A stretch of 64,000 nt of DNA from Minisyncoccota bacterium (GTDB lineage: Bacteria > Patescibacteriota > Minisyncoccia > UBA6257 > GWB1-50-10). This document shows positions 36,518 through 62,036 of the stretch, piece by piece (the first letter of the stretch is position 1; every line of letters starts with the position of its first letter). Under the pieces are notes generated by a model. The model was not told where the DNA came from. It did not search any database and worked only from the letters and a program-made list of their open reading frames with translations. The position numbers and the translations under genes are program-made. The stretch covers positions 62,129 through 126,128 of the forward strand of contig JAGVBB010000002.1 of the NCBI GenBank assembly GCA_020059915.1. Direction: 5' to 3'.

Positions 36518-36689
36518 AGTAATAGTAGTAAGGGGTGTGTATATGTGTATAAGTAGTTATTTTGTTTCTATATAACGCTTTTTGTTTTGTTATTCTGTGG
36601 ATAAAAATATGTGCTTGTGGATTATTATTTATTATTTATTATAAAAACTTTATTTATACATATATTATCTCTTTAATTCTATCCTGATA
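36518..36689. promoter_or_regulatory. candidate oriC / DnaA-box cluster in the dnaA-dnaN spacer
   Basis: AT-rich; perfect DnaA box tgtggataa (36596..36604) and a 1-mismatch box tgtggatta (36616..36624). Confidence 0.45.
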
Positions 36690-38150
36690 TCAACAAGTTT
36701 TAAACAGTTTTTCTTTTATTAACATCAATTTTTGATTTAAATTTTGATTATGTGTGAGCTCCTTTCCGATTTTTTCACAAGCATGAATAACAGTTGTGTG
36801 GTCACGTTTTCCTAATTTTTCTCCTATATGTGGATATGAAAGTTTTAATATGTCACGGAGAAGAAACATTGCAACTTGTCTTGGTTCTACAACCTCTTGT
36901 TTTCTTCCTCTATCAGTAAGATCTGTTTGAGATATTTCATAAAATTCAGCGACAGTTTTGAGTATATCTTGAGGATTTACATTTTTGGGGGTTATTTGTG
37001 CTGTCTCATTGATAATTTCGTCTAGTTTTTTCTGTGTTATCTTTTGATGTTTGTATTCTTCAAAAAAGACAACCTTATTTAATACTCCTTCAACTTCTCT
37101 GATATTTCTTTGTATTTTTGTTGCTATATATTCCAAAACCCAATCCTCTATTGAAACGTTTTGGTTTTGAACCTTTGTTTTTAATATAGCAAGACGCATC
37201 TCATAATCTGGATAAGAAACATCAGCAATCATACCTCCCTCAAAACGAGATCTAAGACGTTCCTCAAGTGTTGGAATTGCTGCGGGAGATCTATCAGAAG
37301 ATATGATTATTTGCTTATTATTTTCATATAAAGCATTAAATGTATAAAAGAACTCAAGTTCTGTTGCTGGTTTTCCACCGATAAATTGAATGTCGTCGAT
37401 AATAAGCATATCAATGTCCCTATATTTTTTTTTCATATCCTCCATACGTTTATTTCTTACAGACCAAACAACATCATTTATAAATTTTTCTGATGTTGTA
37501 TATAACACACGAACCTTATTTTCATATTTTTGTATAACAGCGTTTCCCGCTGCTTGTAATAGATGAGTTTTTCCAAGTCCAACCCCCCCATAAATAAATA
37601 ATGGATTATATTTTTTTCCTACATCATTAATAATTGCTTGAATTGCAGCAAATGCCAATTCATTTGATGATCCAACAACATATGTATCAAATGAATATTT
37701 TGAATTTAAATTTGTTTTTGGGTTTATTGCTAATTCAGAAATCGTATTTAATTTTTCATCAGTAAGCTCCAAACCTCTTGGCACTTCTTTCTTTTTTACT
37801 ATTTGTGGAGCTGTACTAGTGACGGTGTAGTTTACCTGTTTGATAGAACTATCAACATTTCTTAATGAGCCAAGAATAATTTTATGGTACCTATTTTTTA
37901 CCCATTCTTTTGCAAAATTATTAGGCAAACCAACAAGAGCAATTCCTTCTTTTTCATCTTTATTAACTAATTCACTATTTTTTAACCACGTGAGGAAGTT
38001 TGGCCGTGATATTTGGACTTCAATTTCTCCTAATACCGTTTTCCAAAGTTCGTTGTGATTCATAATATAGTTTTTTTGTTTAATTAATTTCCCCTCTCTG
38101 TTTTCTACTAACGTATCACTCAATGATACGTGTATTATAGAATCTTTCAA
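36690..38150 (-). CDS. dnaA: chromosomal replication initiator DnaA
   Basis: AAA+ Walker A GGVGLGKTHLLQA, box VII, C-terminal HTH DNA-binding domain. Confidence 0.9.
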   Translation of the reverse strand: MKDSIIHVSLSDTLVENREGKLIKQKNYIMNHNELWKTVLGEIEVQISRPNFLTWLKNSELVNKDEKEGIALVGLPNNFAKEWVKNRYHKIILGSLRNVDSSIKQVNYTVTSTAPQIVKKKEVPRGLELTDEKLNTISELAINPKTNLNSKYSFDTYVVGSSNELAFAAIQAIINDVGKKYNPLFIYGGVGLGKTHLLQAAGNAVIQKYENKVRVLYTTSEKFINDVVWSVRNKRMEDMKKKYRDIDMLIIDDIQFIGGKPATELEFFYTFNALYENNKQIIISSDRSPAAIPTLEERLRSRFEGGMIADVSYPDYEMRLAILKTKVQNQNVSIEDWVLEYIATKIQRNIREVEGVLNKVVFFEEYKHQKITQKKLDEIINETAQITPKNVNPQDILKTVAEFYEISQTDLTDRGRKQEVVEPRQVAMFLLRDILKLSYPHIGEKLGKRDHTTVIHACEKIGKELTHNQNLNQKLMLIKEKLFKTC

Positions 38151-39834: not shown

Positions 39835-39868
39835 AAAATCTCGCTAGTCACTAGCGGGATTTTTTATG
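39833..39868. terminator. bidirectional terminator between jag and the minus-strand cluster
   Basis: cgctagtcactagcg palindrome flanked by an A-run and a T-run. Confidence 0.55.
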
Positions 39869-41336
39869 GATAGTCGACATGTATGTGAAGCCCTGTGTAA
39901 TTTATACTTCCATCCGCGCCATAACCAGAACAATCAGCGCTTTGAGATCGATAAAAGCTTCCATTTTTATAATATTCACACCACGCACTAACCCCCTTGT
40001 CTTTTATGTAGGTTAATAATAATTCTGTATCTGTTTTTGATTTAGACTCAGCGACAACGTCTGCTGATATTCCCTTATAGTGGTTTGAGTTATTACTTGT
40101 ATGATCCCCACCAGTCAGGCTTGTTATTGCAAATTTTGGAAGTAATTTTCCGGGCCTAAACTCGTTTCCATTTTCATAATCAAACTGAATTGCATCAAGT
40201 AGGGCTATAAGGTTGCTACTCAACACCTTTCCAGAAGTATTGTCACACTGTGTTCCATCTGTTTTACACCCATCGTGACACACATATGGAAATAAACCCT
40301 TTTTAGTATCATCCATAATCCCATGCGCGCTTGTTTTTGATTTTGGTTCGCAATCAGCGTTTGTACTATAGTAGTTTAATTTTATTCCTTGTGCTGCATA
40401 TAGTGTGTTTGTTGTTGAAGCAAGCGCTGATGCCAACCCGCCACGTGCTTCATCCCAACCAGAATATTGGGAAACTGGCGGTGTTGATGATGGTATCTTA
40501 GGAAGAATACACGGAGCTAGATCACTTTTTAATGAGGTCATTATTGTCTTTTCAGCAATATCCCCAACCTCTTGGTTAAGTGCTTTTTGCCACGGCGTCC
40601 TATATGCATATACCAAGCACTGTGCAGAAGATGGCCCAACAGATTTAATAAAATAAGGATATACCCAGATAATAGAGTTTGCTGGAATTGATTCCCCTCC
40701 GGCATAATATTCGTTTGTTGTTATTGTCATGCCGTCTTTATCAAATAAATGACGATATGTACAAACATTATTAACTGGTGGCGTCGTGTTATATAGTTGT
40801 CCGCCAGAATTCCCTGATATGTTTGTTGCTATGTCGCAGGTTGATGATGCGACAGTTGCGCTTAAGCTTGCTTCTGTATTAACCCTATTTTTTTGTATGA
40901 GAGTACCTGTTGATGGTTCTTTTAGTTTTACTAATTCCGGATTTATTGTTTTTAAGAGTAGAAACGAAGCAAAAAGGAGGAGCACTCCCCACAAAGCATC
41001 TTGAATTATTTGTTTTCCCTCACTTTTTGCAGTGACATTCTCTGATTTAACAATAATTATAATTGCTCCATACACAATCATTCCAACCGCAACAATTCCT
41101 GAGATTCCAACAGCAAATTGATACAGGCGGACTATATAGGTTTGTATATCTTGTGGCTCGGAACAAGAAGAAAGTTGGAATCCTGCAATAGGAAGATCTA
41201 TACATGGCGGAGGAAATACAAGTCGCATCGTATCTTGTGCTTGAACAAAAAGAGGTAGGAATGATGTTCCTAAAACAAACAACAAACAGAGGATTAAAAA
41301 TATTTTTTTACTTAAGCGCATATATAAAGTTGTCAT
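39864..41336 (-). CDS. membrane-anchored protein with a C-terminal Peptidase_M15A/M15_3-type (Zn D,D/L,D-peptidase) cell-wall hydrolase domain; last gene of the T4SS-like cluster
   Basis: Signal peptide plus two hydrophobic helices, Cys-rich extracellular region, C-terminal SNHYKGISADVV ... GSINYTGLHIHVDYP matching the SxHxxGxAxD / GxY...HVD zinc-ligand pattern of M15A (MepK/phage endolysin-type) peptidases. Confidence 0.55.
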   Translation of the reverse strand: MTTLYMRLSKKIFLILCLLFVLGTSFLPLFVQAQDTMRLVFPPPCIDLPIAGFQLSSCSEPQDIQTYIVRLYQFAVGISGIVAVGMIVYGAIIIIVKSENVTAKSEGKQIIQDALWGVLLLFASFLLLKTINPELVKLKEPSTGTLIQKNRVNTEASLSATVASSTCDIATNISGNSGGQLYNTTPPVNNVCTYRHLFDKDGMTITTNEYYAGGESIPANSIIWVYPYFIKSVGPSSAQCLVYAYRTPWQKALNQEVGDIAEKTIMTSLKSDLAPCILPKIPSSTPPVSQYSGWDEARGGLASALASTTNTLYAAQGIKLNYYSTNADCEPKSKTSAHGIMDDTKKGLFPYVCHDGCKTDGTQCDNTSGKVLSSNLIALLDAIQFDYENGNEFRPGKLLPKFAITSLTGGDHTSNNSNHYKGISADVVAESKSKTDTELLLTYIKDKGVSAWCEYYKNGSFYRSQSADCSGYGADGSINYTGLHIHVDYP

Positions 41337-42492
41337 ATTTGTTTATAAAGTATAATGATGGTTGTGTTACTATGATATTTTTTGCATCAATGGGTATATT
41401 TTTTATATCAGAGATTTGGACCTGATCTTCTGTTTGTGAATATGTGTCATAGACATATAATAGATCGTCGGTAAATGAAAGATTAGTGATCCAATTAAAT
41501 AAAGAAATATCCGTTTTAGGAACAAAACAAAACGCGGTAGTAACAAGAGAAGAACATTTTTCGGGGAGCGTTTTCTTTGTTGTTGGCACAATGTTTTCAA
41601 AAGAGTTATTTCCAATTACGAATCCATCGTTTTTTGAATAAAAGAAATAAACAGAGAGTTCTGGATTAAGTGAAAAATCTAATAAACCAGATCTAATTGT
41701 TGAAAATAATTTTGTTTTCAAATTATATTGCCAAATGGATGTTGCATATTCATTTCCAAATTTCTCAACAAACAATAATTCATCTCTTGATTTTTTAAAT
41801 ATATCAACATCAAACAGTTTTAGTTTTGGAATAATAACAGTTTTATCGGAATATGATTTTAATGACGAAAGAGATACGACACTTGTTGTTCCCCCTTGAT
41901 CCCAAAGCGCAACAATATCTTGATTGTTAAAATCCCACACAGCGTCAGTTATTGACGAATTTAATGGTGTTATTTTTTCATCCATTGAAGAAAAAATTCC
42001 CCATATTGTTCCTGAATTTGTTGCAAATTTTATTAAAACAGAAGATCCGCCGCGATTTGGTTTTATCATACTAACGTTATTCAGTGGGTTTAGGGCTATT
42101 TTTTCACTCTTTCCGTCTATTACTTTTTTTATTTCTCCATTCTCTGTTATATAAAAAATTCTATTATTTTCCTCATAATACCAATATGATTGCGCGGGTA
42201 CGTCCGAGACTTTTTGAAGTTCTGTGAATGAGGTTTTTATTACTGCTGATTCGCTATAATTTCCACCGTCCCCTGTTTCATTGTTTTCTATTTCCACTAC
42301 ATCTGTCGGTGTCTGCTCATTGTTATCCAACTCCTCTATGAGGGTGTTGGTAGTTGATGTGGATATAGTCGTGTTGCCTTGCTCTTCTGTTGGTGTTGTT
42401 TTAGATACAACAAAATAAATTATCCACGCAATTGTGCCGAGTATAAGAAAAATGATTAGATATTTATATATTGGTCTCATGTTAGTTTCCAA
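41308..42492 (-). CDS. hypothetical bitopic membrane protein with a large extracellular beta-rich domain (cluster gene)
   Basis: N-terminal TM anchor; repeated aromatic/Asn-rich segments; no family recognised. Confidence 0.4.
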   Translation of the reverse strand: METNMRPIYKYLIIFLILGTIAWIIYFVVSKTTPTEEQGNTTISTSTTNTLIEELDNNEQTPTDVVEIENNETGDGGNYSESAVIKTSFTELQKVSDVPAQSYWYYEENNRIFYITENGEIKKVIDGKSEKIALNPLNNVSMIKPNRGGSSVLIKFATNSGTIWGIFSSMDEKITPLNSSITDAVWDFNNQDIVALWDQGGTTSVVSLSSLKSYSDKTVIIPKLKLFDVDIFKKSRDELLFVEKFGNEYATSIWQYNLKTKLFSTIRSGLLDFSLNPELSVYFFYSKNDGFVIGNNSFENIVPTTKKTLPEKCSSLVTTAFCFVPKTDISLFNWITNLSFTDDLLYVYDTYSQTEDQVQISDIKNIPIDAKNIIVTQPSLYFINKYDNFIYALK

Positions 42493-43177
42493 TAAATATT
42501 TTTGTTTGAGTTTTTATTATTTCAAGCAAAGATTTTTTGTTTTGGACATATCCAGTTATAGAAACTGAATTGTTTGAAGTGGTGCTCGGGTTCCCTGTAT
42601 TTATTGTTATTTTATTGTTTGATCCCGTTCCTTTTTTAAGTAATCCAATTTGCCAAGAGAATGAGAGGTCTTCAAATGACTTGGTATTAAAAAAATATGG
42701 AACAGCGGTTATTGAGATATCAGAGTTTTTGGGAACTACATTGTTTATATAAGGTATTTCTAATATAAGTTTTGGTTCTGTTGTTGGTATAGTAATACTT
42801 TTTTGAATCAATACCCCATTCCAATCCACTGAAACCGAAACGAAATTTGTTCTATCAGTTTCAGAGAATACCACCATTGCTTCTTTTTCTCCTGTCCCTT
42901 TTCTTATTCTTTCCCCATTTTTTCTCCACTCAATGGTAGAATTTGACACATCCAACAATGTCCCATTTTGAACCGCCTCAACAGCGAGATACACTTTTGT
43001 TCCATATGAGGGAACCGCCTTTCCAATATATGAAGTTGGGAAAAAATTATCTGCCTTCCAAGTTACTATAAGTTCCGGATTTGCTGCATTTGTAGATAAG
43101 AAAAACCCGAAAAACAAACAAACAAATGTTAATAAAAAGAGATTATGCCGCATGTTTAATTTTTTCTTGTTCTTCAT
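42482..43177 (-). CDS. hypothetical secreted protein (cluster gene)
   Basis: Probable start at the internal Met giving the signal peptide MKNKKKLNMRHNLFLLTFVCLFFGFFLSTNA; the ORF-track start 43330 would overlap the upstream gene by 188 nt. Confidence 0.4.
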   Translation of the reverse strand: MKNKKKLNMRHNLFLLTFVCLFFGFFLSTNAANPELIVTWKADNFFPTSYIGKAVPSYGTKVYLAVEAVQNGTLLDVSNSTIEWRKNGERIRKGTGEKEAMVVFSETDRTNFVSVSVDWNGVLIQKSITIPTTEPKLILEIPYINNVVPKNSDISITAVPYFFNTKSFEDLSFSWQIGLLKKGTGSNNKITINTGNPSTTSNNSVSITGYVQNKKSLLEIIKTQTKIFIGN

Positions 43178-43712
43178 TATGTTCTTGAATAATTGGATTG
43201 TTTTGTGTCCGTAGTGGGGATGACGGCATTGATAAAATCCTCGGTTTATTTGTATTGGATAGAGGCGCTCCCTTATTAACTTTGTTAATTGTTCCAACAA
43301 TTTTACTTCCCCTCGATGCAGATGTTGCAACTTTCATTGCAACAGATCCCGTCCCTCCAGTTGCTGCCCCAACGGCTATTTGTGCTCCTTTCTCTATTAT
43401 ACCTAATTTCTCCGGATGATTCTCTAGATACATAACAACAACAATAGTTGCACACATTGTTGGAAGAAATGGTATGCCCTGAACCATAATTGGAATGAGA
43501 TATCCTTTTAATGGATCATTTAGGACGCTTGATCCACCCTTTTTAAGCCAGTAGTTTTTTACAAATGGCCACAAGACGCTTTGTGCTATCCAACCAAGAA
43601 AACCAAAAGAAAATAAATCACCAAGGAAAGCAATTCCATCGATAATTAACCCAACAACAAAACCGAGAAACATCTCTCCAAGCTCAAATTTGTTTTTTGT
43701 TTTCTGACTCAT
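43143..43712 (-). CDS. hypothetical integral membrane protein (cluster gene)
   Basis: ~4 hydrophobic helices, Gly-rich loop. Confidence 0.4.
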   Translation of the reverse strand: MSQKTKNKFELGEMFLGFVVGLIIDGIAFLGDLFSFGFLGWIAQSVLWPFVKNYWLKKGGSSVLNDPLKGYLIPIMVQGIPFLPTMCATIVVVMYLENHPEKLGIIEKGAQIAVGAATGGTGSVAMKVATSASRGSKIVGTINKVNKGAPLSNTNKPRILSMPSSPLRTQNNPIIQEHNEEQEKIKHAA

Positions 43713-43715
43713 TCT

Positions 43716-45470
43716 TTATGCCAATCCCTTTGATTCTAATACCTGCTCTGGGTTTGTAGTAACTATTTGATCCTCAGTATATGAGGCAATAACTTTCATT
43801 GCTACATGTTTTGCTCCAGCAAAGAAAAGCCCTTCTCCGACGCCCGCCTCTAATAAAAATGCTCGCTCCCCTTCGGTGAGATTGAATGCTGTTGCTACGG
43901 AGTCAATTGAGCCAGGAGACTGCTTCATAAGAATTTGCATTGAAGAGTTTGTGACGATTGGTTTTCCATATTCTGATTTCAAAAAATCTTCCACGTCCTG
44001 TGTTATAGTTGTTATTCCAAGATAATATTTTCTTGCGCGTTTTACTAAACCAAACAAAAATGAAGCAGAGTCTTTATATTTCATCATTAACCACGCCTCA
44101 TCAATAATAAGTGCGCGTTGTTGTAATTTTGACCGCACAAGATTCCAAACAAAGTTTAAAACAATATACATTGCTATCGGGCGGAGCTCTTCTTCTAAAT
44201 CCCTAATTGAAAAAACAATAAGGCGATTTTTTATGTCCACGTTTGTGGGGGCGTTGGTAAATCCAGCATAGGAACCATGAACAAATTTATCAAGTCGAGC
44301 AGCGAGTGTTTGCCCCCCAGATGTATTTGAAAGTATTACTTGTAGATCTTCTAAGAGTGGGGGGTTAATTTCTCCTAGTGTTCCAAAATTATCTGCTGTT
44401 ATATCTCGTGATGCATATGTTTCTGTTACCACTCTATCAAGAAGTGAATCCTCTTCTGGGGTTATAACGCCCAGCATAAGTTTTAATAATCCAGTGAGAT
44501 TTAAAATGTGTGATTTAAATACGTCCGATGGTTCCTCTCCTTCTGGAATAATAGGAATATCAAAAGGATTGACGTGGTTTTGTGACGTGAGTGAGATTTT
44601 AAAGTAACTACCACCTATTGCATTGGAGAGATTCTGATATTCGTTTTCTGGATCAATAATAATAACATTCACCCCAAGCATTAATGATCGCAAGACCTGG
44701 AGTTTTGTGGTGTATGATTTTCCCGCACCAGATGTTGCAAATATTACTTGGTTTGCATTTTGAAGTGAAAATCTATCAAAGATTATCAAGCTATTGTTGT
44801 GCATATTGACCCCATATAATATCCCCTTTTCAGAAGATAAGTCAGGAGAAACAAAAGGAAAGAGAGATGATGCTGGGCTTGAATTCAATGGTGTTGTTAT
44901 TTCAAGTTTATCCCTATTTATCGGAAGTGCTGTGGAGTTAAATCCCTCAAGTTGTTTGAATAGTGCGGGTTTTATATACACAAGCTTACTCTCGAGTGCT
45001 GATTGAATTTTTTCCTCAAGCTTTCTTAGTCCATCCAGTGTTTGTGCATAGATGGTTATATATACTCCAACGCGGAACAGTTTTTCTCTCGCTTGCAACA
45101 AAGAGTCACGAAGTTGTTCGACGTCCTCATATGCTGTTTCTAGCATTGGGTCTCTCACAAGCCCCTTTTCTTGTTTATCCCAAAGTTCTGCCTCTATGTT
45201 TGCAACCTTCTTTTTTAAATCTTTTAATGCAAATGCAGTATCCATTGGGTGAACAAACACAGATATATCCATCATTTCTGCCATGTTGATAATTGGGGAA
45301 AACCACCCACTAGATACATAGCGAGGATAAGTAAAAACAAACAAAGTTTTCACGAAATAATCACCAAGCTTTAAGTAGCTTGAACTAACCTCAAGTCCGG
45401 ATGGGGCAATAATATTTGGTAGATCCTTATTTGATGGCGTATATGCTTGTGGAACTGATATTTTTATCAT
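43716..45470 (-). CDS. VirB4/TraE-type T4SS ATPase, C-terminal ATPase portion
   Basis: Walker A FATSGAGKSYTT, IIDPENEY, Walker B IIDEAWLMM, ...GWFSPII region typical of VirB4 family. Confidence 0.7.
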   Translation of the reverse strand: MIKISVPQAYTPSNKDLPNIIAPSGLEVSSSYLKLGDYFVKTLFVFTYPRYVSSGWFSPIINMAEMMDISVFVHPMDTAFALKDLKKKVANIEAELWDKQEKGLVRDPMLETAYEDVEQLRDSLLQAREKLFRVGVYITIYAQTLDGLRKLEEKIQSALESKLVYIKPALFKQLEGFNSTALPINRDKLEITTPLNSSPASSLFPFVSPDLSSEKGILYGVNMHNNSLIIFDRFSLQNANQVIFATSGAGKSYTTKLQVLRSLMLGVNVIIIDPENEYQNLSNAIGGSYFKISLTSQNHVNPFDIPIIPEGEEPSDVFKSHILNLTGLLKLMLGVITPEEDSLLDRVVTETYASRDITADNFGTLGEINPPLLEDLQVILSNTSGGQTLAARLDKFVHGSYAGFTNAPTNVDIKNRLIVFSIRDLEEELRPIAMYIVLNFVWNLVRSKLQQRALIIDEAWLMMKYKDSASFLFGLVKRARKYYLGITTITQDVEDFLKSEYGKPIVTNSSMQILMKQSPGSIDSVATAFNLTEGERAFLLEAGVGEGLFFAGAKHVAMKVIASYTEDQIVTTNPEQVLESKGLA

Positions 45471-45472
45471 AA

Positions 45473-46114
45473 TTATTTTTTTGCAATTTGCAGATCCTTT
45501 TTTTCTATTAACTGTGGATTATAGAGATTATAGAAAAGTTCAGTGAGCTCCTCGTCATTTAATTCAGAAACATGCAATCCGATTTGTTCCAGTCCTTCTT
45601 TTACTTCAATAACCCGGTGTTCTAATTGTTCCAATTTTGACTGGAGTGTTGCTTGTGCCTCTGCATCCCGTGATTTTTGAGAACCAAACAAAGAAGAAAG
45701 AACCCCAAATGATGGCGTATTTACAATGCCTTCATAAGGAATCACCACGAAGAATGTTTTTGAAATTATTGCATTTTGATCAACTAGTGTTTTTATAAAA
45801 TTTATATATTCGTCAATTTGGATCTTTAATAATTCATTTTCTTCCTGCTCTCTCCGTTCCCTCATTTTATCGAGATAGGAATCAACATTAACCTTTCTTG
45901 AGTGTATAAAGAGTTGTGTTGGATAATCGATGGTATTTAAAAAATTTTGAAAACTACCCAAAATAAGATTTTGTTCAGCGTCTGATTTTAAATCAAAATT
46001 TATTCCACTAACGATAAGTATTCGACGGATCCCGCCATCTTTTAAATAGACGATTCCATCTTTTATTTCACTTATTTCTACAAATTTTTGTGTTGGTGTA
46101 TTTACCTCTGCCAT
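45473..46114 (-). CDS. VirB4-family N-terminal domain encoded as a separate ORF
   Basis: EISEIKDGIVYLKDGGIRRILIVSGINFDLKSDAEQNLILGSFQNFLNTIDYPTQLFIHSRKV resembles the CagE_TrbE_VirB N-terminal domain of Gram-positive VirB4 (PrgJ/TraE/TcpF); ends 2 nt before the ATPase ORF in a different frame. Confidence 0.6.
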   Translation of the reverse strand: MAEVNTPTQKFVEISEIKDGIVYLKDGGIRRILIVSGINFDLKSDAEQNLILGSFQNFLNTIDYPTQLFIHSRKVNVDSYLDKMRERREQEENELLKIQIDEYINFIKTLVDQNAIISKTFFVVIPYEGIVNTPSFGVLSSLFGSQKSRDAEAQATLQSKLEQLEHRVIEVKEGLEQIGLHVSELNDEELTELFYNLYNPQLIEKKDLQIAKK

Positions 46115-46134
46115 ATGCTAATTGTACATGATTA

Positions 46135-46635
46135 TTAATAATCAATGCGTTTTGCCGTCCTTTTTTCTCCAGTAAGATAGGTTACTACCTCATATTTCCC
46201 CTTTTTGTTTTCCCTCACTGTTTCGTGCTCCTGTTTGAATAACTTGCCCGTTGTTATAGACTCAGCAACGTTTTTGATCTTTTCTTGTATACTCATAGCT
46301 CGACGTATTGATGAAAGTTTTTCAATAGAGCTGGTGTCTATTGAAGTTTCTTCCATTGCGCGCTCCCATACATATATGCGGGGATTCCAAAAATAACGAA
46401 ATGCTGATTGTGCTACCTTGTGGAGATCTTGTCCATTTACTTTTACAAAAGCAAAGGAAATTGCTATTCCAACAACAATCATAGAAAGTATAATCCATAA
46501 AAAAATGGAGAAGATATAGTAAAGAACAATTGAAACAACAGCAGCACCACCAATAAGTAAAAATTGTTGGAGTGTAAAAAATGATATTATCTTTGGTTTT
46601 TCCTCTATAAATTGAGGTACCTGAAAGGTAGACAT
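46135..46635 (-). CDS. PrgI/VirB3-like small two-TM protein
   Basis: FQVPQFIEEKPKIISFFTLQQFLLIGGAAVV then two hydrophobic helices; the pattern and its position directly upstream of VirB4 match PrgI/TcpE-family proteins. Confidence 0.5.
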   Translation of the reverse strand: MSTFQVPQFIEEKPKIISFFTLQQFLLIGGAAVVSIVLYYIFSIFLWIILSMIVVGIAISFAFVKVNGQDLHKVAQSAFRYFWNPRIYVWERAMEETSIDTSSIEKLSSIRRAMSIQEKIKNVAESITTGKLFKQEHETVRENKKGKYEVVTYLTGEKRTAKRIDY

Positions 46636-46698
46636 TTCATTTATTATACCCTAGAAATAAAAACAAGTGGAATACTATAAACACCCAAAAATGGGTGT

Positions 46699-47778
46699 TT
46701 ATTTTAGATTTATAATATTTCCTTTGATTACCGATTGAGTGCTGTCTGGTTTTTCCTCTTGGATTTTAATCTCTGGTAACGGCGATTTGATATTTTCCTG
46801 TCCATTTTTGAAAATATTTGATATCCACGATGATTTTTTTTCTTGTTTTTCCTCTGGAACTACTGCTGAGTCCATTATTTTTTTATCTGTTTCTTGCGCT
46901 GTTTTTGGTGTTAGTGTTATAACTTCTGGCGTTTGGACCGTGTTTATTTGTTGGGTCATTGGTGAGCTCTTCGTCTCTGATGGTTTGATAATATCTTCTT
47001 CTCTACTCATTCGCTCAAGTGCCCCAACACTTATTACCTCTTCCTCTGCCCCAACCGCAGGTTTCAGCCCAGTTCGTATCTCATTATAATGAATTGTTGT
47101 TTTTTGTTCTGGTTTTAAAAAGGAGAAAGGATTTGGTCCAGATTCAATTTTTGCTTTTGGAATTTTTTTCTCACTCGATTCGGATGATGAAGGTATAAAT
47201 TTATTGAATGGGGTTTCTGGTCTTTTTTCTTCATGTGCATCTCTTCTAAAAAATGTTGGCTCTTCCTGAAGAATTAGTGGAGCATCTTCTGATGTTTCAA
47301 TTTTTATTGGTGAAGACTCTTCATTTTTAGTAAAGAAATCTGGTTTAATAACCTCTTCTTTTTTTTCAAGCTCTTCTGTGTCTTTGCCACCTTCTATTTT
47401 TTTCTCAATTACATCCCTAATTTGCTCCTTTTCTGCAAGGACCTCTTCTATTGGTTTATAAATATCATTTATTTCCTCTTCATAGGGCGCAAGAAGACGG
47501 TTATATATTTCATCAGTAAGAACCCTTGCGTGTTCAAAATTGAGAAATAACTGCTCCCCGACCTCTCTGGAAAGATTTCTGAGGGATATAAAACCCATAA
47601 GGGTCAATCCAACAAGTTGTTCAAGAATTACTGATTTTTCTGGACTTAGATAGTGTTCTCGTTCAATTCCTGAAAGCACACGTTTTGTTTGTTCCGACTC
47701 AAAAACTGCCCGCAGAGATGCTGGTATCGCTTCGTATCGTTCATCAAATATGTCTGATGTAAATAGTGAATAGTCCAT
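46699..47778 (-). CDS. hypothetical acidic, Glu/Lys/Pro-rich and probably disordered cytoplasmic protein (cluster gene)
   Basis: No TM segments; structured N-terminal ~110 aa, then low-complexity sequence. Confidence 0.4.
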   Translation of the reverse strand: MDYSLFTSDIFDERYEAIPASLRAVFESEQTKRVLSGIEREHYLSPEKSVILEQLVGLTLMGFISLRNLSREVGEQLFLNFEHARVLTDEIYNRLLAPYEEEINDIYKPIEEVLAEKEQIRDVIEKKIEGGKDTEELEKKEEVIKPDFFTKNEESSPIKIETSEDAPLILQEEPTFFRRDAHEEKRPETPFNKFIPSSSESSEKKIPKAKIESGPNPFSFLKPEQKTTIHYNEIRTGLKPAVGAEEEVISVGALERMSREEDIIKPSETKSSPMTQQINTVQTPEVITLTPKTAQETDKKIMDSAVVPEEKQEKKSSWISNIFKNGQENIKSPLPEIKIQEEKPDSTQSVIKGNIINLK

Positions 47779-50216
47779 TATCTTTTTTTACCCCCCTTTT
47801 TTTGTTTATTTCTCATTTCAACAAGATCATTGCTAAATCTGTCCCGTTCTTTTTCAAGTCCCTTGCGTGCTGAGTTAAGATATTCTTTTTGATTATCGGT
47901 AGCGCCACTAATTACCTCATCAAGTTTTGGTAATATCTCCTGATTAATTGCTTCTATGCGGTTTGTGATATTTTTCTCATTATATTTCCCTTTTGTGAGA
48001 GTCGTTTTCCAATTTGAAACCTGCTCTTTAGTTCTGTTTATTGTTTCGTCAATTGCAACAATTGTTGGATCTGTTGTATTTTTTAATTCGCCAAGTTTTT
48101 CAACGCGCTTCTTTTCTAGATCACTTACATGTTCTTCTAGTGCGTCAAAAACTCTCTTTGTCTCTGGTGAATTTCCCAGAAGACCGTTGAGTTTATATTG
48201 AAGTGACGACGCACGATCTTGGTAGAATTTTGGATCAAGTCCATCAATTGCGTTTTTGTCTGCAAGATCCCTTGTTTTCTTAATTTCACTTTCAAACTCT
48301 TGGATTGTTTCTGGTGTTTCAAAATTCTTTTTAATAACGTTTTCCATTGTTTCTCGTTTCTTTTCAACAAACTTCTTTTCACTCTCAGTTTTTACTTCTT
48401 TTTGTTGTTTGAGAAGCTTTGAGTATTCATTGCTGAGGTCACCCTCATTCATGTCGCCCCACTTACCACGCAACGCAGAAATGGTTTTTTGTTGTGATTC
48501 TTCAAATTTCTTGTTAAATTCTTTAAGATTTGAAATCTTGAACCCTTTTGTTTTAAGTTCCTCAAGAGTCTTAAGGAGTTTTTCGTGATCTTTTTCACGA
48601 TCTTCTGGTGTTTTGTCTTTCTCGTCTTTTTTCTCTTTCTCTTTTATAATCCCAGCACCCTGAAATGCACCCTTGAGTAAACCATCAGCCCAACCACCCC
48701 TCTTAATTTCCTTACTTGCCTGTCCAGCGAGTGCGGATTCAATTGGTTTACCAACTTTTTGTCCCAAACTACCAACTTTGCGCGCAAATAGTCCACCTGT
48801 CATATTTTTAAGTGACATCATTGTGCGTGACTTTCCAGCAATATCTTTATTTGCATCATTTAATGATTTTTCCAACTCCTTCTTTTCTTCTGGAGAAAGT
48901 TTTTTATCATTTCTTATTTCTTTAAGGTCTTTATGGTAGGTATCAAATTTTTTCCTCTTTTGTTCCATATCTTCCCCAGTTCCCTTAAGATTCTTACCCA
49001 TTAATCCCATTTTTGTAGCAAATTTTCCACCCCATTCGGATCGTGAAAGGCGCGTACCTATGTTTGCCGCTTTGTTCTTACCATATGTCTTTGCCCCCTT
49101 CATAAGGCCATCTTTTGCTTTATTTGCAAGAGACGCTCCTTCAATTCCCATTTTTTGAGCAACAGTAATTGCACCAATCATAAGTCCAGCAACTACAATC
49201 ATTTGAGTTCCATTTTGTACAATCTGTGCTAATGGTCCTGGCAGTGTTTCAGCAATACCAGCAAGCTTTCCCCTGTTTGATGGATCTGCAAGATTTTCTG
49301 CCGCAACGAGCGAGAGATAAACAAAGAAAGATGCCGCAGGAGCAAAGAAGGTGTATTTCCAAAAATTTGACCACCACTGTGCATTATATGATTTGAGTCC
49401 AGGGAATACCCAAAACAACCAGGCAAGTGGCGCAAGCACGAGAAGAAATGTAAGGGCAACATACCGCACCAAAAACATACCAGCGAGCATCAAAAGTACA
49501 ATTGTTGCAAGAAGTGTAAAGAATACTATAAAGAATAACCCAGCAATTGAGGAAAGAACCTGAACACCAAAGGTAAAAAAACCACCTCCTTCTTGTGCGG
49601 GGTCTGGTGGAAGTGGGTCATCAGACTCTTCTAATAAGAATTTTTGTGGCCCAAATGCATTTGCAAGTACCTCGGTAAGCCCACTTCCTGGTACCAAGCT
49701 ACTACCACCACTTGGGTCAATTCTTCCTACAAAAAACCACGTGAGTGTATTGGAAAAATCTATAAGTGTTCCCGCAATAACAAAACTGAAATTTACCACT
49801 ACTGCCGCGATAATAAGGTTGAGTAACAATTTTTTTGCCCCATATGATTGGACGCGAATTATAGTCATGAACGCCATAATGACGGTCAGAAGAACAAAGC
49901 CAAGATTTGCTATATCTCTTGATACTCTCCAACCAATGTCAGCAATTGGATTTGCAGCAGGGTCCGCAACATACATATTGAGATCAACGAGGGTAAATTT
50001 AACAAGCCATGCGCCTATAGCAAAAAATATTCCCGCAATAAAGTTAAATATGTAGGCGATTAATTTAAAAACACCAGTTACAACACCGGAGAGGGAAATA
50101 CCAAAAAGTGCATGTGAGACGTTCGGTGTAAGTACTCCTGCAGCAAAAACAAAACCCAAAACAATCCCCAGGATTATATGTTTTCTATGTTGTTTTAGGA
50201 TTGTTGTTATGGGCAT
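47778..50216 (-). CDS. VirB6/TrbL-like polytopic membrane protein with a ~400-aa Lys/Glu-rich coiled-coil C-terminal tail
   Basis: Signal/TM1 plus ~7 more hydrophobic helices in the first ~400 aa with Trp/Phe-rich loops; C-terminal half is highly charged and predicted alpha-helical. Confidence 0.45.
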   Translation of the reverse strand: MPITTILKQHRKHIILGIVLGFVFAAGVLTPNVSHALFGISLSGVVTGVFKLIAYIFNFIAGIFFAIGAWLVKFTLVDLNMYVADPAANPIADIGWRVSRDIANLGFVLLTVIMAFMTIIRVQSYGAKKLLLNLIIAAVVVNFSFVIAGTLIDFSNTLTWFFVGRIDPSGGSSLVPGSGLTEVLANAFGPQKFLLEESDDPLPPDPAQEGGGFFTFGVQVLSSIAGLFFIVFFTLLATIVLLMLAGMFLVRYVALTFLLVLAPLAWLFWVFPGLKSYNAQWWSNFWKYTFFAPAASFFVYLSLVAAENLADPSNRGKLAGIAETLPGPLAQIVQNGTQMIVVAGLMIGAITVAQKMGIEGASLANKAKDGLMKGAKTYGKNKAANIGTRLSRSEWGGKFATKMGLMGKNLKGTGEDMEQKRKKFDTYHKDLKEIRNDKKLSPEEKKELEKSLNDANKDIAGKSRTMMSLKNMTGGLFARKVGSLGQKVGKPIESALAGQASKEIKRGGWADGLLKGAFQGAGIIKEKEKKDEKDKTPEDREKDHEKLLKTLEELKTKGFKISNLKEFNKKFEESQQKTISALRGKWGDMNEGDLSNEYSKLLKQQKEVKTESEKKFVEKKRETMENVIKKNFETPETIQEFESEIKKTRDLADKNAIDGLDPKFYQDRASSLQYKLNGLLGNSPETKRVFDALEEHVSDLEKKRVEKLGELKNTTDPTIVAIDETINRTKEQVSNWKTTLTKGKYNEKNITNRIEAINQEILPKLDEVISGATDNQKEYLNSARKGLEKERDRFSNDLVEMRNKQKKGGKKR

Positions 50217-50218
50217 GA

Positions 50219-52186
50219 TTATTCTTCAAAAAAACTTGGACATGTATAGATTGTTGCGTTTATACATGAGTTATATAGTGCGTTTATTTCTATAATCTTT
50301 GTCGCAGAAAACACCTTTGCGTTATATATATTTTGTGATATTTCAGATATATTTTCTTCAATTGAATTGAGTGCCGTGCTTATTGTTGATATCCCTCCTT
50401 GTGATGTTGTGGTAGTTGGTTTATTTATCTGTCCAAATGCATCTGTTGTTGTGCTTAAAAGTAAATAAGACCCATTAATTGATGTAGTGTGGCTGTTAAT
50501 TAGATTTTGATCCCTTTTTGTTGATAGACAAAGTTCTCCATTAATTGATGATTTTACCCTCTCACAATTTGCAAGTAGTGTTATCTTATTATTTAGTTGG
50601 ATTAGTGATGTTTTTACAACTCCCAGTGAAGAACTCACATTTTGAAGTGATGTTTCTACATCATTATACTGAGTTTGCAGATTTATTAGTTGTTGGTTTT
50701 GTATTCCTGTTTGTGTTTGGTTTTGTATTCCTGTTTCTGATTGTCCTAATACATCATTTGTGTTTTTATTTTGTTCATAGCTGTCTTTTATTCCTTGATC
50801 TTGTGGAGATCCAGAGCGACCCGTTCCAGAATTACTTTTTATTCCATCACCAGCAAGTAACCCTTTTCCGACATTCACAATTCCTTGCACTCCTTTGTTA
50901 ATAAGACGATTGACGGCGGCATCAAAAACGACATCAATATAATCCTCGAGGTTTTCTGCGTTCGCAATGTAGTGTTGATCTTGATTAAATGTTGACTGAA
51001 GAGCTGTCTTTGTTGTGTCTCCGGGAGTATTTATATAGGTATGAGTACATTTCCACCCACTATAGTGTGGGGTATATAGATTTAAAAGAGAGAGGTTTGT
51101 TGAGTTCTGTTTTGCAAGTTGTGTTAATCCCGTGTCATAAGATATTCCAGCAGCATTTGTTGTTGGTTTTTGTGGGTCTGGAAATTCTTCACTAAATCCG
51201 GTAGTAACTACCTGAGAAACAACCTTCCCATTCTCATTAAGTAGGTTGAGAGTCCATTCACTACAAACTTTTTCTCCTTTAAATCCTGACGCCGTCAGTG
51301 ATTCTTGTGTCGCCTCTTGTTTCTTCTCATCAATGACTTTGTATGCCTCATCCAGTGCGAGAATCTCCAATCCAAAGCGATTATTATTAGGAGAAAGTGT
51401 TTCATTATAAGCGATCCATCCACCATTTCTGAAATCGTTTCCAAAGTCACTTATGTTTTGTACAATTTTATCTAGTGTACATTGTGTTTCTTGTGTAAAC
51501 TTTTTCTGTGTAGGAGCGCGCAAATTCAATTGTAATTTTAGAGACAATTTTTCATCACATAAGTTTCCTAGTCCGACATCTCTTGCAACGTCTCCAATCG
51601 CCGATTGATAAGAATCCTCGAACACATCACCAAAGTTTGTGATGAATCTTGGGGTTCCCTTAAAGTCATTATTTATCCATTCTATTGTCTGATCTGCGAT
51701 ACGATCAAGGAGTTGTTTTTTAAGTCTTGCAAGTGCAATATTTAGTGCAAAATCAGTGATTGCGGTGAGGCAGTCTTGTGCTTGTCCCTCTGCTAATTTT
51801 GCTTGAATCTCATCTGATTTATTCTCTTGTGTTTCTCGTATCTTGCTTTGCGCTTTTGATATTGCTTCCAATGTTTGCAGATCAAACACAGGCACAGACA
51901 TAACACTTCCCGTTATTGCATTTTGTACGAGATCTCGAAGTTCTTGTTCTGCAAGTTCTCTTGCCTCAGTTTTTGCAAGATCTATTGCTTTCTGTCTCAT
52001 TTCTTCTTTAATCCTCGCTGCTTCTGCGCCGATACCAAAACATTGGGAAGCTATATCAGCGAGACCACCGGCATTTACATGTTTTACAAAATAAACATTC
52101 ACAGAAAATATTGATGCTACAAGTAATAATGATATTATTTTTAAAACAGATTTTTTCATTGTAGAGAAGAAATTGCTACATTCCAC
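50219..52186 (-). CDS. large secreted hypothetical protein (cluster gene) with an internal tandem repeat
   Basis: Signal peptide MKKSVLKIISLLLVASIFSVNVYFVKHVNA; Gln/Asn/Thr-rich; direct 24-nt DNA repeat at ~50690..50745 encoding TGIQNQTQ x2. Confidence 0.45.
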   Translation of the reverse strand: MECSNFFSTMKKSVLKIISLLLVASIFSVNVYFVKHVNAGGLADIASQCFGIGAEAARIKEEMRQKAIDLAKTEARELAEQELRDLVQNAITGSVMSVPVFDLQTLEAISKAQSKIRETQENKSDEIQAKLAEGQAQDCLTAITDFALNIALARLKKQLLDRIADQTIEWINNDFKGTPRFITNFGDVFEDSYQSAIGDVARDVGLGNLCDEKLSLKLQLNLRAPTQKKFTQETQCTLDKIVQNISDFGNDFRNGGWIAYNETLSPNNNRFGLEILALDEAYKVIDEKKQEATQESLTASGFKGEKVCSEWTLNLLNENGKVVSQVVTTGFSEEFPDPQKPTTNAAGISYDTGLTQLAKQNSTNLSLLNLYTPHYSGWKCTHTYINTPGDTTKTALQSTFNQDQHYIANAENLEDYIDVVFDAAVNRLINKGVQGIVNVGKGLLAGDGIKSNSGTGRSGSPQDQGIKDSYEQNKNTNDVLGQSETGIQNQTQTGIQNQQLINLQTQYNDVETSLQNVSSSLGVVKTSLIQLNNKITLLANCERVKSSINGELCLSTKRDQNLINSHTTSINGSYLLLSTTTDAFGQINKPTTTTSQGGISTISTALNSIEENISEISQNIYNAKVFSATKIIEINALYNSCINATIYTCPSFFEE

Positions 52187-52902
52187 ACAATATCATCATT
52201 TTTAATGAGTGTAGAAAGGTTTTCAACAACGGCTATTACTTTTACTGGGTCGTCTGGGTTTTCAATAATAATTTTTGCGAGTGTTCTTCTTTTTTCAGCG
52301 TTGTTTAATATTGCTAGATGGAAGTCCTCCCAACCGGAAAATGCTGGAGTTTCCAATAAGAAATCAATATACTCAGATTCTGCATTTATATGTTTCTGCA
52401 AATCATCTGATTTTTTTTCCAAAACAAAAATACCAACCGCAGAAACAATATTTGTTTCTCTCTTTCTTTCTATTTCAACATCTTTTTTCTCTATTTTTTC
52501 TATGTATGATATAAGATCTGTTAGTGTTGATTTTTTCTCTATAGTAATGTCTTTTTTTGTATAAATTTGGGAAAGTATTGGTTGGGTTGTATATTTTTGG
52601 ATAATATTCTGTATATCAACCTCATTTGGGAGAAGTATTTCATCGCCACCTTTTTTGTTTTTATTATATTCAAAAATAGCAAGTTCATAATCTTTTATTG
52701 TCTGTTCGGTTGCGTTAAAGTTTGGCTCGTTTAGAGAATATATAGATTTTCTATCGTTTTTTAAAAATTGTGAGTCATTTTTTTCAGAACCAGTTATTTG
52801 TGCTGATGACAGGTTTTTATCGGTTGTGTAGAACAAAAGATATGCGGAATAAGCAATTCCGATCATGACAATACCAACTGAGAGGATCTTTTTATTCCTC
52901 AT
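52156..52902 (-). CDS. hypothetical bitopic membrane protein (possible VirB8-like position; first gene of the cluster)
   Basis: Single N-terminal TM anchor plus a ~215-aa extracytoplasmic domain. Confidence 0.35.
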   Translation of the reverse strand: MRNKKILSVGIVMIGIAYSAYLLFYTTDKNLSSAQITGSEKNDSQFLKNDRKSIYSLNEPNFNATEQTIKDYELAIFEYNKNKKGGDEILLPNEVDIQNIIQKYTTQPILSQIYTKKDITIEKKSTLTDLISYIEKIEKKDVEIERKRETNIVSAVGIFVLEKKSDDLQKHINAESEYIDFLLETPAFSGWEDFHLAILNNAEKRRTLAKIIIENPDDPVKVIAVVENLSTLIKNDDIVWNVAISSLQ

Positions 52903-53708
52903 TACTTTTCATTATACAACATTTTTGCAAGCTCCATTATAGTTTCAGAGCTCAGGACCTGTGCCCTCGTGTTTTCTGGAATATTTAACCTAGTTAATAT
53001 ATTTTGAATGTCATTTTTTTTGAACGTTTTCTCAATGTCTGCTTCCCTGAGGTTGTTCAATATTGTTTTTCTTGGGTGTTTGAATAGTGCTTTCGTAACA
53101 ACTATATATCTTTCGATTTCCTCTTTTTTATATTGGTTGTGTGTAATTAGTTGAATAACCGCAGAATCAACCTTTGGTGGTGGCGAAAATTGATTTCGTG
53201 GTACTTGTTTGATAATCATCGCGTCTGCAAAGGAAGAAATAATCGCCGAAAGAAGATTTTGGTGTGGCGGTTTTTGAGTTGCTCGTAATGCTACCTCTTT
53301 TTGTATAAGGAGTGTTGTGGTGTGAGGTTTGATGGAGAGATTGCTAATAATACGAAACAAAAATGAGGTTATATAGTATGGTATATTCCCCACTATCACA
53401 TAATTCTTTAATTTTTGGGCATCAGGGAGTATTGGTAAAATTTCCCTTACATCTCCGCGGAACAACCTGTTTTTTGTTGAACTACTAGTAAGAAGGGTAT
53501 CAATTTTTTCAAAGAATCCCTGATCTTTTTCTATACAAAAAAGTGATCCATTTAGTTTATTAATTTCTGGAAGCAAAAAATTGGTTAACTCTCCATGTCC
53601 TGGGCCTATTTCAATGAGTGTTTCTCCCTCTTTTAACTTAGTGTTTTTTGCTATAAATGAGAGTGTTTCTTTTTCCTTTAAAAAGTGCTGTCCAAGTTTC
53701 TGTCGCAT
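52902..53708 (-). CDS. rsmA: 16S rRNA (adenine1518/1519-N6)-dimethyltransferase
   Basis: MRQKLGQHFL...LIEIGPGHGELT motif; start set at the internal Met, because the 135-aa N-terminal extension in the ORF track is the out-of-frame shadow of the neighbouring gene. Confidence 0.8.
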   Translation of the reverse strand: MRQKLGQHFLKEKETLSFIAKNTKLKEGETLIEIGPGHGELTNFLLPEINKLNGSLFCIEKDQGFFEKIDTLLTSSSTKNRLFRGDVREILPILPDAQKLKNYVIVGNIPYYITSFLFRIISNLSIKPHTTTLLIQKEVALRATQKPPHQNLLSAIISSFADAMIIKQVPRNQFSPPPKVDSAVIQLITHNQYKKEEIERYIVVTKALFKHPRKTILNNLREADIEKTFKKNDIQNILTRLNIPENTRAQVLSSETIMELAKMLYNEK

Positions 53709-53710
53709 AT

Positions 53711-54082
53711 TTATGGAGTTGATGGGATGGATGACCCATAAAGCATTATTGGAAACGCATAAACGGGTGTTGGTACGCCAGGTGGTGGAATGGGTATCCA
53801 ACAAATGGGCGCAAGTGCCGGCGTGTACAACCCGAGCACGTAGCCACCAGGTGTTATTGCATAATTCATAAAGCGTCCGGTAGCTGGTTGTGTTCCATAA
53901 ATTGCTGCGGGGGCGATTCCAGAAGGAATGATGGTAATTGGGCCCAATCCACCAGAACAGACAATTGGTGGGGCCATTGATGTGACCACTTTTCCACCGA
54001 ATCCACGGAGAATATTTTGTGCAAATATTTTGTTTGGCGAAAATAGCAAGAGTAAGAATATAACAAAGAAGATTTTTTTCAT
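53711..54082 (-). CDS. small secreted Pro/Gly-rich hypothetical protein
   Basis: Classic signal peptide MKKIFFVIFLLLLFSPNKIFA; ends 2 nt before the rsmA start. Confidence 0.4.
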   Translation of the reverse strand: MKKIFFVIFLLLLFSPNKIFAQNILRGFGGKVVTSMAPPIVCSGGLGPITIIPSGIAPAAIYGTQPATGRFMNYAITPGGYVLGLYTPALAPICWIPIPPPGVPTPVYAFPIMLYGSSIPSTP

Positions 54083-56714: not shown

Positions 56715-57058
56715 ATACTGTGCTCTGCAAGTTTACACTCTTTACACAACTTTGATTCGGGTCGTATAGAGAGAAGTTCATATGATATTTCTTTCCCACA
56801 CTGCTCACATATTCCATATGCTCCAGTAATTATCTTATCAAGCGCAATATCAATATCATGGATGGCGTCTTCCTCGATTTGTTCTACACCAAGGTAATTT
56901 GCGAACTCTTCTGTTTCGTCCCCCTCTTCTTCCAGGTCCTCAGATCCTCCCCCAAAGGTAGACTCCTTTTTTGCGTCTTTAAGGTGTGAAAGAATTTTTT
57001 TCTTCTCCTCTAGAAGTCTTATCTTTAATTCTTCCGTTTGTTCATTTGAAAAACTCAT
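56711..57058 (-). CDS. DksA/TraR family C4 zinc-finger protein
   Basis: CEQCGKEI...CKECK four-Cys finger and coiled-coil N-terminus. Confidence 0.65.
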   Translation of the reverse strand: MSFSNEQTEELKIRLLEEKKKILSHLKDAKKESTFGGGSEDLEEEGDETEEFANYLGVEQIEEDAIHDIDIALDKIITGAYGICEQCGKEISYELLSIRPESKLCKECKLAEHSI

Positions 57059-61922: not shown

Positions 61923-62036
61923 ATATGCGTGTATCTTACTATGAAAGGTGCTTTATGTCAATTTATCCATATATAGCTATCATTTGTGTCTTTTGTCGCA
62001 CAATATTTTGGGGTAGAATGATACTAATGAACGAAG

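Follow-up and report, generated by a model that had tools for sequence, protein, structure and literature searches.

Positions 39864-52902, minus strand, of a 64-kb stretch of DNA from a Minisyncoccota bacterium (contig JAGVBB010000002.1; the whole stretch is referred to as the window) hold eleven co-directional open reading frames (ORFs), g1 to g11, running from 52902 down to 39864. The cluster appears, with a probability of about 0.82, to be a chromosomal, vertically inherited type IV secretion system (T4SS) typical of Patescibacteria, belonging to the MPF_FATA-derived 'Patescibacteria clade' and residing in the ultra-small genome of a Jorgensenbacteria-like member of the Paceibacteria (Parcubacteria; candidate phyla radiation). 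Co-inherited with the T4SS core are six proteins of the envelope or cytoplasm that are specific to the lineage (g1, g2, g4, g8, g9 and g10). The eleven ORFs, which had originally been predicted from the sequence alone, were recovered by ORF analysis (248, 655/646, 812, 359, 166, 213, 584, 189, about 231, 394/390 and 490 amino acids (aa) for g1 to g11), in agreement with independent gene calls on the source contig (248, 646, 812, 359, 166, 213, 584, 189, 231, 390 and 490 aa). All junctions had been described as overlapping or 0-3 nt long, which is correct for eight of the ten internal junctions (overlapping or with a gap of at most 3 nt) but not for g4/g5, where a gap of 63 nt holds a hairpin, or for g5/g6, with a gap of 20 nt. 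The eleven genes are as follows.

52156-52902, minus strand: g1, a 248-aa bitopic protein with an N-terminal transmembrane (TM) helix at residues 6-24 (hydropathy scan)
50219-52159, minus strand: g2, a 646-aa secreted, Cys-containing protein (hydropathy scan and profile searches)
47778-50216, minus strand: g3, an 812-aa extended VirB6/TrbL-like polytopic membrane protein (TrbL_3 match and TM scan)
46699-47778, minus strand: g4, a 359-aa acidic protein (D+E, 19%) with no TM segment, predicted to be cytoplasmic
46135-46635, minus strand: g5, a 166-aa PrgI/VirB3-like protein forming a two-TM hairpin (Pfam PrgI, PF12666)
45473-46114, minus strand: g6, a 213-aa TrsD-like protein, the counterpart of the VirB4 N-terminal domain (NCBIfam TrsD, TraC-like)
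43716-45470, minus strand: g7, a 584-aa VirB4 ATPase, comprising the middle and C-terminal P-loop domain (NCBIfam, Pfam and PDB)
43143-43712, minus strand: g8, a 189-aa small polytopic membrane protein (11-orthologue alignment)
42482-43177, minus strand: g9, a 231-aa secreted or anchored protein (consensus sequence)
41308-42480, minus strand: g10, a bitopic protein of 390 aa in which a disordered linker joins a TM helix (residues 5-28) to a predicted extracellular beta-propeller (AlphaFold2 (AF2) and Foldseek)
39864-41336, minus strand: g11, the 490-aa product of the last gene, with the several domains described below

The core of the system is made up of g7, g6, g5 and g3. Protein g7 matched the NCBIfam model conju_CD1110 over profile positions 182-733 of 752 (E = 1e-109, 367.9 bits; cutoff, 325), the Pfam family P-loop_TraG (2.3e-26) and, as its sole solved relative, the C-domain of the Thermoanaerobacter VirB4 (PDB 4ag5; E = 1.2e-43), with further matches to the TraC-F and VirB4_CagE models; it is a VirB4 without the N-terminal domain. 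The absent domain is provided by g6, which matched NCBIfam TrsD at 1.8e-9 (below the curated cutoff), aligned to the N-terminal positions of the VirB4_plasma, CD1110 and VirB4_CagE models, and has a precomputed Pfam TraC-like match. Protein g5 passed the Pfam cutoff for PF12666 (E = 4.6e-7, 30.7 bits; cutoff, 27). A TM scan of g3 revealed about seven TM segments within residues 1-360, followed by a charged, cytoplasmic coiled-coil tail of about 420 aa, a search with which returned matches to coiled-coil proteins only. This protein has a precomputed Pfam match to TrbL_3 (PF19590), and 8 of 60 members of its family passed Pfam TrbL (PF04610), with a best E value of 2.2e-6. These results bear out the original prediction of a VirB4 ATPase whose N-domain and ATPase lie in adjacent ORFs, accompanied by a PrgI/VirB3-like protein and by an 812-aa VirB6/TrbL-like protein with a coiled-coil tail.

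We scanned one genome per species with g7 and obtained 282 relatives, of which the best 80 (L001-L080) were used for locus comparison. All of these 80 were metagenome-assembled genomes of Patescibacteria, with VirB4 proteins 51-94% identical to g7, and many were labelled Paceibacterota, Jorgensenbacteria, Yanofskybacteria or Nealsonbacteria. A TrsD-like gene adjoined virB4 in 74 of the 80 loci, and PrgI lay beside TrsD/VirB4 in 66. In L048 (9332-11704), TrsD and VirB4 were fused into one continuous ORF of 790 aa containing no Ns, indicating that the split, which the window shares with 72 other loci, is not universal. The order comM-M23-ksgA-[g1..g11]-jag-yidC-dnaA-dnaN was kept in about 45 species-level genomes, the sole variation being that the pilin gene (g11 in the window) and g10 were swapped in many of them. 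With profile hidden Markov models (HMMs), g1, g2, g3, g8, g9, g10 and the pilin-domain gene were detected in practically every locus having enough flank in the tier with VirB4 identities of at least about 65%, and many of the accessory genes were also found in the tier of 52-56% identity. VirB4 was more conserved than DnaA in every locus in which both were found (94 vs 88%, 81 vs 78%, 76 vs 68% and 54 vs 43%; VirB4 at 43716-45470 and DnaA at 36690-38150 of the window), and in nearly all loci it also exceeded DnaN, YidC and Jag in conservation; it is under very strong constraint. The extracellular members g1, g2, g10 and g11 were among the fastest evolving (19-65% identity). The divergence of the block tracks that of DnaA and DnaN.

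No VirD4/type IV coupling protein (T4CP) or relaxase was found among the proteins of the 64-kb window, the rest of which is housekeeping in content, and no flanking repeats were found around the cluster. The GC content was equal inside and outside. A mobile element could be ruled out because of the fixed synteny of the block and its flanks in the about 45 genomes, the matching composition, and the absence of flanking repeats and of mobility genes from the window; the block is thus chromosomal, vertically inherited and not mobile. This accords with earlier statements that the cluster lacks VirD4, relaxase and flanking repeats, resembles its surroundings in composition and is not an obvious plasmid, ICE (integrated conjugative element) or prophage, and the comparison with relatives, which had been proposed as a check, revealed a conserved block rather than one that varies in the manner of a mobile element. 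Outside the conserved block, a XerC/D-like recombinase gene is located at 61925-62914, 9 kb from the cluster. Its product had only general Phage_integrase family domain matches, and we read it as the putative chromosome-dimer resolvase XerC/D.

The product of the last gene, g11, is composite. From the N-terminus it consists of a signal peptide, a VirB2-like pilin hairpin (residues 64-130), a disordered linker, a Cys-rich beta domain (about 165-290) that contains the motifs WxYPY and CLxYAY, and, at the C-terminus, a zinc peptidase domain of the LAS type (about 330-490; H419, D426 and H484/H486). Residues 64-128 matched Pfam T4SS_pilin (PF18895) with 21.2 bits (E = 3e-4; cutoff, 26.6), ten homologues have precomputed PF18895 matches, two are named 'pilin' by NCBI, and the AF2 model contains a helical hairpin at 64-130. 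The C-terminal domain has the Hedgehog/DD-peptidase fold, and its zinc ligands, H-x(3-6)-D and H-x-H, were kept in 26 of 29 homologues. In the remaining three (P0098, P0107 and P0109), the pilin and Cys-rich domains were retained and the LAS domain was replaced by an SLT-like module, 'AESGG...SWGLFQIN'. This exchange argues that the C-terminal module is a peptidoglycan hydrolase, swappable among homologues; many shorter orthologues possess no C-terminal catalytic module. Residues 280-490 had no Pfam match, Peptidase_M15 (PF08291) included, at E <= 10, and the M15/LAS assignment is supported by fold and motif, not by Pfam. Hence, the original prediction of a cell-wall hydrolase is retained for the last gene but without the Peptidase_M15 match expected of it, and the view of g11 as a hydrolase only has to be abandoned because the N-terminal VirB2-like pilin domain had been overlooked.

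When the window was searched with the pilin-domain HMM for free-standing pilins, g11 alone matched. Four other loci (L002, L049, L060 and L063) had two to four pilin-domain genes near VirB4, like the published 'pilin arrays', compared with one in the window. In addition, the pilin domains of two g11 homologues, P0108 and P0117, weakly matched the model for the Mycoplasma ICE 'Mbov_0395 pilin-like conjugal transfer protein' (1e-4, below cutoff), which hints at the presence of pilin-like proteins in other monoderm T4SSs.

Of the six remaining proteins, g1, g2, g4, g8 and g9 had no match to any Pfam, NCBIfam or PDB family. In g1, the extracellular part is mostly helical by eye; the protein had no Pfam or NCBIfam match, a 15-sequence profile searched against PDB gave nothing at E <= 10, and orthologues (19-47% identity) occupied the same position in 27 loci. 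Protein g2 has a signal or TM segment at residues 13-31, 11 Cys residues, a C-terminal coiled coil and a conserved core (about 125-435) in which certain Cys, Trp and Gly residues are nearly invariant. Its family is very large, with 3058 cluster representatives (50% identity) at E <= 1e-3 and 1141 at E <= 1e-10; no Pfam domain was found in 24 orthologues or in ten diverse representatives, and the PDB profile search returned coiled-coil noise only. A tandem 24-nt repeat at 50685-50733 encodes the repeated peptide TGIQNQ(T/Q)Q in g2. Protein g4 consists of a conserved N-terminal portion of about 100 aa followed by a low-complexity acidic remainder, has no Pfam or NCBIfam match, and was represented by orthologues in 24-25 loci (25-63% identity). 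The membrane protein g8, which has a conserved ENHPEKF motif past its last TM segment and likewise no Pfam or NCBIfam match, was detected by profile in 41 loci, in every case directly after VirB4. For g9, present in 51 loci, the consensus inspected by eye suggests two beta-rich repeats, and no match was found in Pfam, NCBIfam or, by profile, PDB. For g10, present in 47 loci, the AF2 model (11-sequence alignment) had a mean predicted local distance difference test score (pLDDT) of 57, with blades at residues 88-264 scoring 70-89, and the top Foldseek matches were TolB, tricorn and WD40 propellers (E about 1e-7), whereas a PDB profile search gave nothing useful. On this model, in which we are only partly confident, g10 is predicted to be a TM-anchored beta-propeller.

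The bitopic g1 had been placed in the position of VirB8, an assignment that we found to be unsupported in view of its lack of Pfam, NCBIfam and PDB-profile matches. The other bitopic candidate for a VirB8/TcpC-like protein of NTF2 fold, g10, was rejected since AF2 and Foldseek give a beta-propeller. At the sequence level, neither g1 nor g9 had a Pfam or PDB match. Alignment by hhalign of the g1, g2, g3N, g9 and g10 profiles with proteins of the Clostridium botulinum pCDC3875 module, including the CD1112 VirB6, gave no signal, although this is a weak test with single-sequence targets.

Three further features delimit or punctuate the cluster.

52902-53720, minus strand: ksgA/rsmA, the upstream neighbour, encoding an rRNA adenine dimethylase (Pfam RrnaAD, 5.7e-44)
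46677-46702, no strand assigned: a palindromic hairpin with a GC core between g4 and g5, after which a TATAAT hexamer lies 7 nt upstream of the g5 ATG
39842-39856, minus strand: a terminator-like hairpin and T-run, 8 nt past the g11 stop (sequence)

The stop codon of ksgA overlaps the start of g1 at 52902 (junction sequence, AGTAATGAGG), suggesting that ksgA may be the first gene of the transcription unit, co-transcribed with g1; the adjacency of the two genes is conserved in relatives. The hairpin after g11 likely marks the end of the unit. The one between g4 and g5 may serve as an attenuator or promoter within the unit, possibly as a lineage-specific attenuator: the closest relative, L001, has a hairpin of different sequence with a T-run at the equivalent place (between about 8772 and 8830), and in most other relatives the spacer is only 2-20 nt long. 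As had been predicted, the cluster lies between jag and ksgA near oriC, one flank consisting of dnaN, dnaA, rnpA, yidC and jag and the other of ksgA, an M23/LysM peptidase gene and comM, the last about 2.3 kb from the cluster. The spacer between dnaA and dnaN contains, within 80 nt (36544-36624) and about 3.2 kb away from g1-g11, three DnaA-box-like sites, of which one is perfect and which are probably part of oriC; the count of DnaA boxes over the whole window was not above chance.

Elsewhere in the window, a 123-aa ORF with no Pfam match on record was called upstream of ksgA (53711-54082, minus strand), a 115-aa ORF of the DksA/TraR zinc-finger type (56711-57058, minus strand) adjoins comM, and polynucleotide phosphorylase (PNPase) is encoded at 59026-61083 (minus strand), about 6 kb from the cluster. 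A PilB gene is also present. At 1436-4945 (minus strand) lies the gene for a 1169-aa class I aminoacyl-tRNA synthetase (Pfam tRNA-synt_1), which we take to be of the Ile/Val type and whose catalytic domain is interrupted at residues 507-667 by a complete His_Phos_1 (histidine-phosphatase) domain.

From the parts list and its conservation, we infer the following working model. A VirB4 hexamer of g6 and g7 would dock on VirB3 (g5) and VirB6 (g3) at the membrane and would power the building of a conduit or short pilus out of subunits with a pilin domain; the tethered LAS peptidoglycan peptidase would open the wall, either the cell's own or that of the host; and the extracellular g1, g2, g9 and g10 may form or decorate the wall-spanning, host-contacting part. 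The machine would serve contact-dependent exchange of macromolecules with a host cell, in either direction, be it the export of effectors or the uptake of host material, rather than conjugation. Given that the window has neither a relaxase nor an adjacent coupling protein, contact-dependent exchange with the host is the most likely function and conjugation is unlikely. Several points weigh against this interpretation. The sequence gives no sign of the substrate or of the direction of transport, and a VirB8-like component was not found by profile searches with g1, g9 and g10 or in the model of g10. For g3 itself, neither the local Pfam copy nor a PDB profile search with its membrane domain gave a match, so that its designation as VirB6 rests on the precomputed TrbL_3 match and on its relatives. 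The pilin match of g11 is below the Pfam cutoff, and an appendage of 360 aa would be sterically unusual on a polymerising pilin; g11 could therefore be a membrane-anchored hydrolase instead of a pilus subunit.

Other explanations differ in how they account for the same parts. That the cluster is an ICE or its remnant, transferring DNA between cells, would agree with the presence of VirB4, PrgI and VirB6 in a gene order like that of monoderm conjugation modules and with the tyrosine recombinase gene 9 kb away, but we regard it as highly improbable, since about 45 species-level genomes share the block together with its housekeeping flanks on either side, with divergence tracking that of DnaA and DnaN, the window has no relaxase, T4CP, flanking repeats or composition shift, and the recombinase, with its general Phage_integrase domains and probable XerC/D identity, is outside the conserved block; moreover, relaxases are rare in Patescibacteria (PMC12102498). 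Still further from the data is the idea that the ATPase is a translocase of the FtsK/HerA type and the cluster unrelated to T4SSs. Pfam DUF87 (HerA central domain) did match g7 at 1.4e-8, on the P-loop segment at residues 243-293, but the full-length matches are to VirB4 families (CD1110, TraC-F, VirB4_CagE and PDB 4ag5) and the neighbours are PrgI, TrsD and TrbL_3 proteins; these profile and PDB matches already refute this reading, and the original assignment of the ATPase to VirB4 rather than FtsK/HerA, on which the earlier prediction had been made to depend, is upheld by VirB4 models that span the whole of g7.

A more serious contender, although a doubtful one, is a nucleic-acid import machine like the Helicobacter ComB or the archaeal Ced system, with host DNA or RNA as a source of nucleotides. 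Such genomes lack nucleotide synthesis, comM is nearby and PNPase is encoded in the window, and a cultivated Minisyncoccota bacterium has possible T4SS pili and takes up RNA from its host (bioRxiv 10.64898/2026.06.21.733656). Protein g7 also matched, weakly, the NCBIfam models for CedB (1.3e-11) and CedD, ATPases of DNA import in archaea, but the scores are far below the cutoffs and the matches are confined to P-loop segments, and no nucleic-acid-binding component was recognised in the cluster. In Southlakia, furthermore, cells that lose comEC are no longer competent but stay viable, whereas the T4SS is essential (PMC12857230), which sets the role of the T4SS apart from classical transformation. 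A related and rather unlikely possibility is that the pilin subunit, with its exchangeable peptidoglycan-cutting head (LAS here, SLT-like in some homologues), would form together with g1, g2, g9 and g10 a wall-piercing conduit that draws in host macromolecules such as RNA and does not export DNA; if true, a T4SS would act as a feeding tube, and g2, with its more than 3000 clusters, would be a new structural component. Less probable again is an organelle for adhesion and wall remodelling only, i.e., a pilus or an anchored hydrolase complex for attachment to the host that translocates nothing. The pilin domain, the peptidoglycan hydrolase, the fast-evolving extracellular proteins (g1, g2, g10 and g11) and the lack of an adjacent coupling protein would suit such an organelle, but in every T4SS studied VirB4, VirB3 and VirB6 together make up the translocon (PMC12857230), adhesion in Patescibacteria is already conferred by type IV pili (PMC10633639), a PilB gene being present in the window, and a role in adhesion alone is made less likely by the very strong constraint on the translocon core.

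The function of such systems is an important question, which the present finding does not render newly testable. A large part of bacterial diversity is made up of Patescibacteria, which live on other cells, and their origin-proximal T4SS is among the few machines shown, in Saccharimonadia, to be essential for that lifestyle. The annotation could guide structural and biochemical work on the pilin-tethered LAS peptidase, the TolB-like propeller and the very large g2 family of secreted proteins. Our additions are modest, consisting of the pilin-LAS fusion with its module swapping, the predicted g10 propeller, the size of the g2 family, the TrsD-VirB4 fusion in L048 and the higher conservation of VirB4 than of DnaA.

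Among known systems, the monoderm conjugative T4SSs of the MPF_FATA type (pCF10 Prg/Pcf, pIP501 Tra, pGO1 Trs, the CTn2/CD1110 type and C. botulinum pCDC3875) share with the cluster a CD1110-type VirB4, PrgI, a VirB6-like protein, a hydrolase downstream of VirB4, a similar gene order and the absence of an outer-membrane core. For example, the order in the clostridial CD1110-type module, VirD4-x-VirB6-PrgI-x-VirB4-small protein-SLT hydrolase-x, resembles g3-g4-g5-g6/g7-g8...g11, and a split into TrsD and TrsE has a precedent in the pGO1 subclass of MPF_FATA (PMC12102498). The prediction of a T4SS-like apparatus of Gram-positive type is thereby sustained. Unlike these systems, however, the cluster does not reside on a mobile element, has no relaxase, oriT or coupling protein (VirD4/TcpA) in the window and no recognisable VirB8-like protein (PrgL/TraM/TcpC), carries a LAS peptidase fused to a pilin domain in place of an SLT/CHAP hydrolase, and has a VirB6 with a 420-aa coiled-coil tail. 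The closest plasmid VirB4 proteins among the matches listed, all from monoderms (e.g., Streptomyces, Bacillus and Clostridium), were 29-35% identical to g7, compared with 51-94% for the best 80 of the 282 genome matches, a proxy for clade membership that is based on identity and not on a tree.

The T4SS module of Mycoplasma ICEs, from a further lineage of wall-reduced monoderms that has a pilin-like protein in its T4SS, is also similar in that g7 (8.5e-87) and g6 (2.3e-8) matched the model of its VirB4, Mbov_0397, below the curated cutoffs, as did the pilin domain of P0108 with Mbov_0395; unlike the cluster, it is carried on a mobile ICE, and the likeness may be taken as only a lead. The named kin of the C-terminal domain of g11 are the LAS metallopeptidases, i.e., the Zn DD-peptidase of Streptomyces albus, VanX/VanY, and the L-Ala-D-Glu peptidases of phage T5 and Ply500, from which it differs in having no Pfam match at E <= 10 and in its fusion to the preceding pilin hairpin and Cys-rich domain.

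The closest counterparts are the T4SSs already described from Patescibacteria. In a survey of 3035 Patescibacteria genomes (Quiñonero-Coronel et al. 2025, Microb Genom; PMC12102498), the VirB4 proteins were reported to form a monophyletic clade within MPF_FATA, with TrsD as the commonest partner of VirB4, together with PrgI, VirB6 and VirB2-like pilins, very few matches to VirB8 and VirB1 and almost no relaxases; in Paceibacteria, the T4SS was located beside dnaA, dnaN, ksgA, rnpA and rpmH. The dataset of that survey included, as a Paceibacteria genome with VirB4, LiPW_41, which is the closest relative of the window (VirB4, 94% identical). In Southlakia epibionticum, the homologous cluster SEML1_0006-0019 and the pilins were found to be essential for epibiotic growth (Wang et al. 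2023, Cell; PMC10633639), a 2025 review counts these systems among notable newcomers to the T4SS superfamily (PMC12857230), and a 2026 preprint describes tubular structures, possibly T4SS pili, at the Minisyncoccota-host interface along with acquisition of host RNA (bioRxiv 10.64898/2026.06.21.733656). Essentiality has been shown for Saccharimonadia only, in which arrays of short pilins occur, unlike the window, where the single gene with a pilin domain also encodes a Cys-rich domain and, fused to these, a LAS peptidase; and g1, g2, g4, g8, g9 and g10 are not named in the passages cited from PMC12102498 and PMC10633639. The novelty implied by the original prediction has therefore to be withdrawn, for the chromosomal, relaxase-less, origin-proximal T4SS of Patescibacteria was already known as a kind in 2023-2025, including its location at the origin and its lack of genes for conjugation (PMC12102498, PMC10633639 and PMC12857230). 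With its FATA/CD1110-type VirB4, separate adjacent TrsD, PrgI/VirB3, VirB6/TrbL and VirB2-like pilin domain, at a chromosomal site near dnaA, dnaN, ksgA and rnpA with no relaxase or adjacent T4CP in the window, the cluster resembles the Patescibacteria-clade and Southlakia systems, and represents no new kind of system but a clean, complete Paceibacteria example of a published one.

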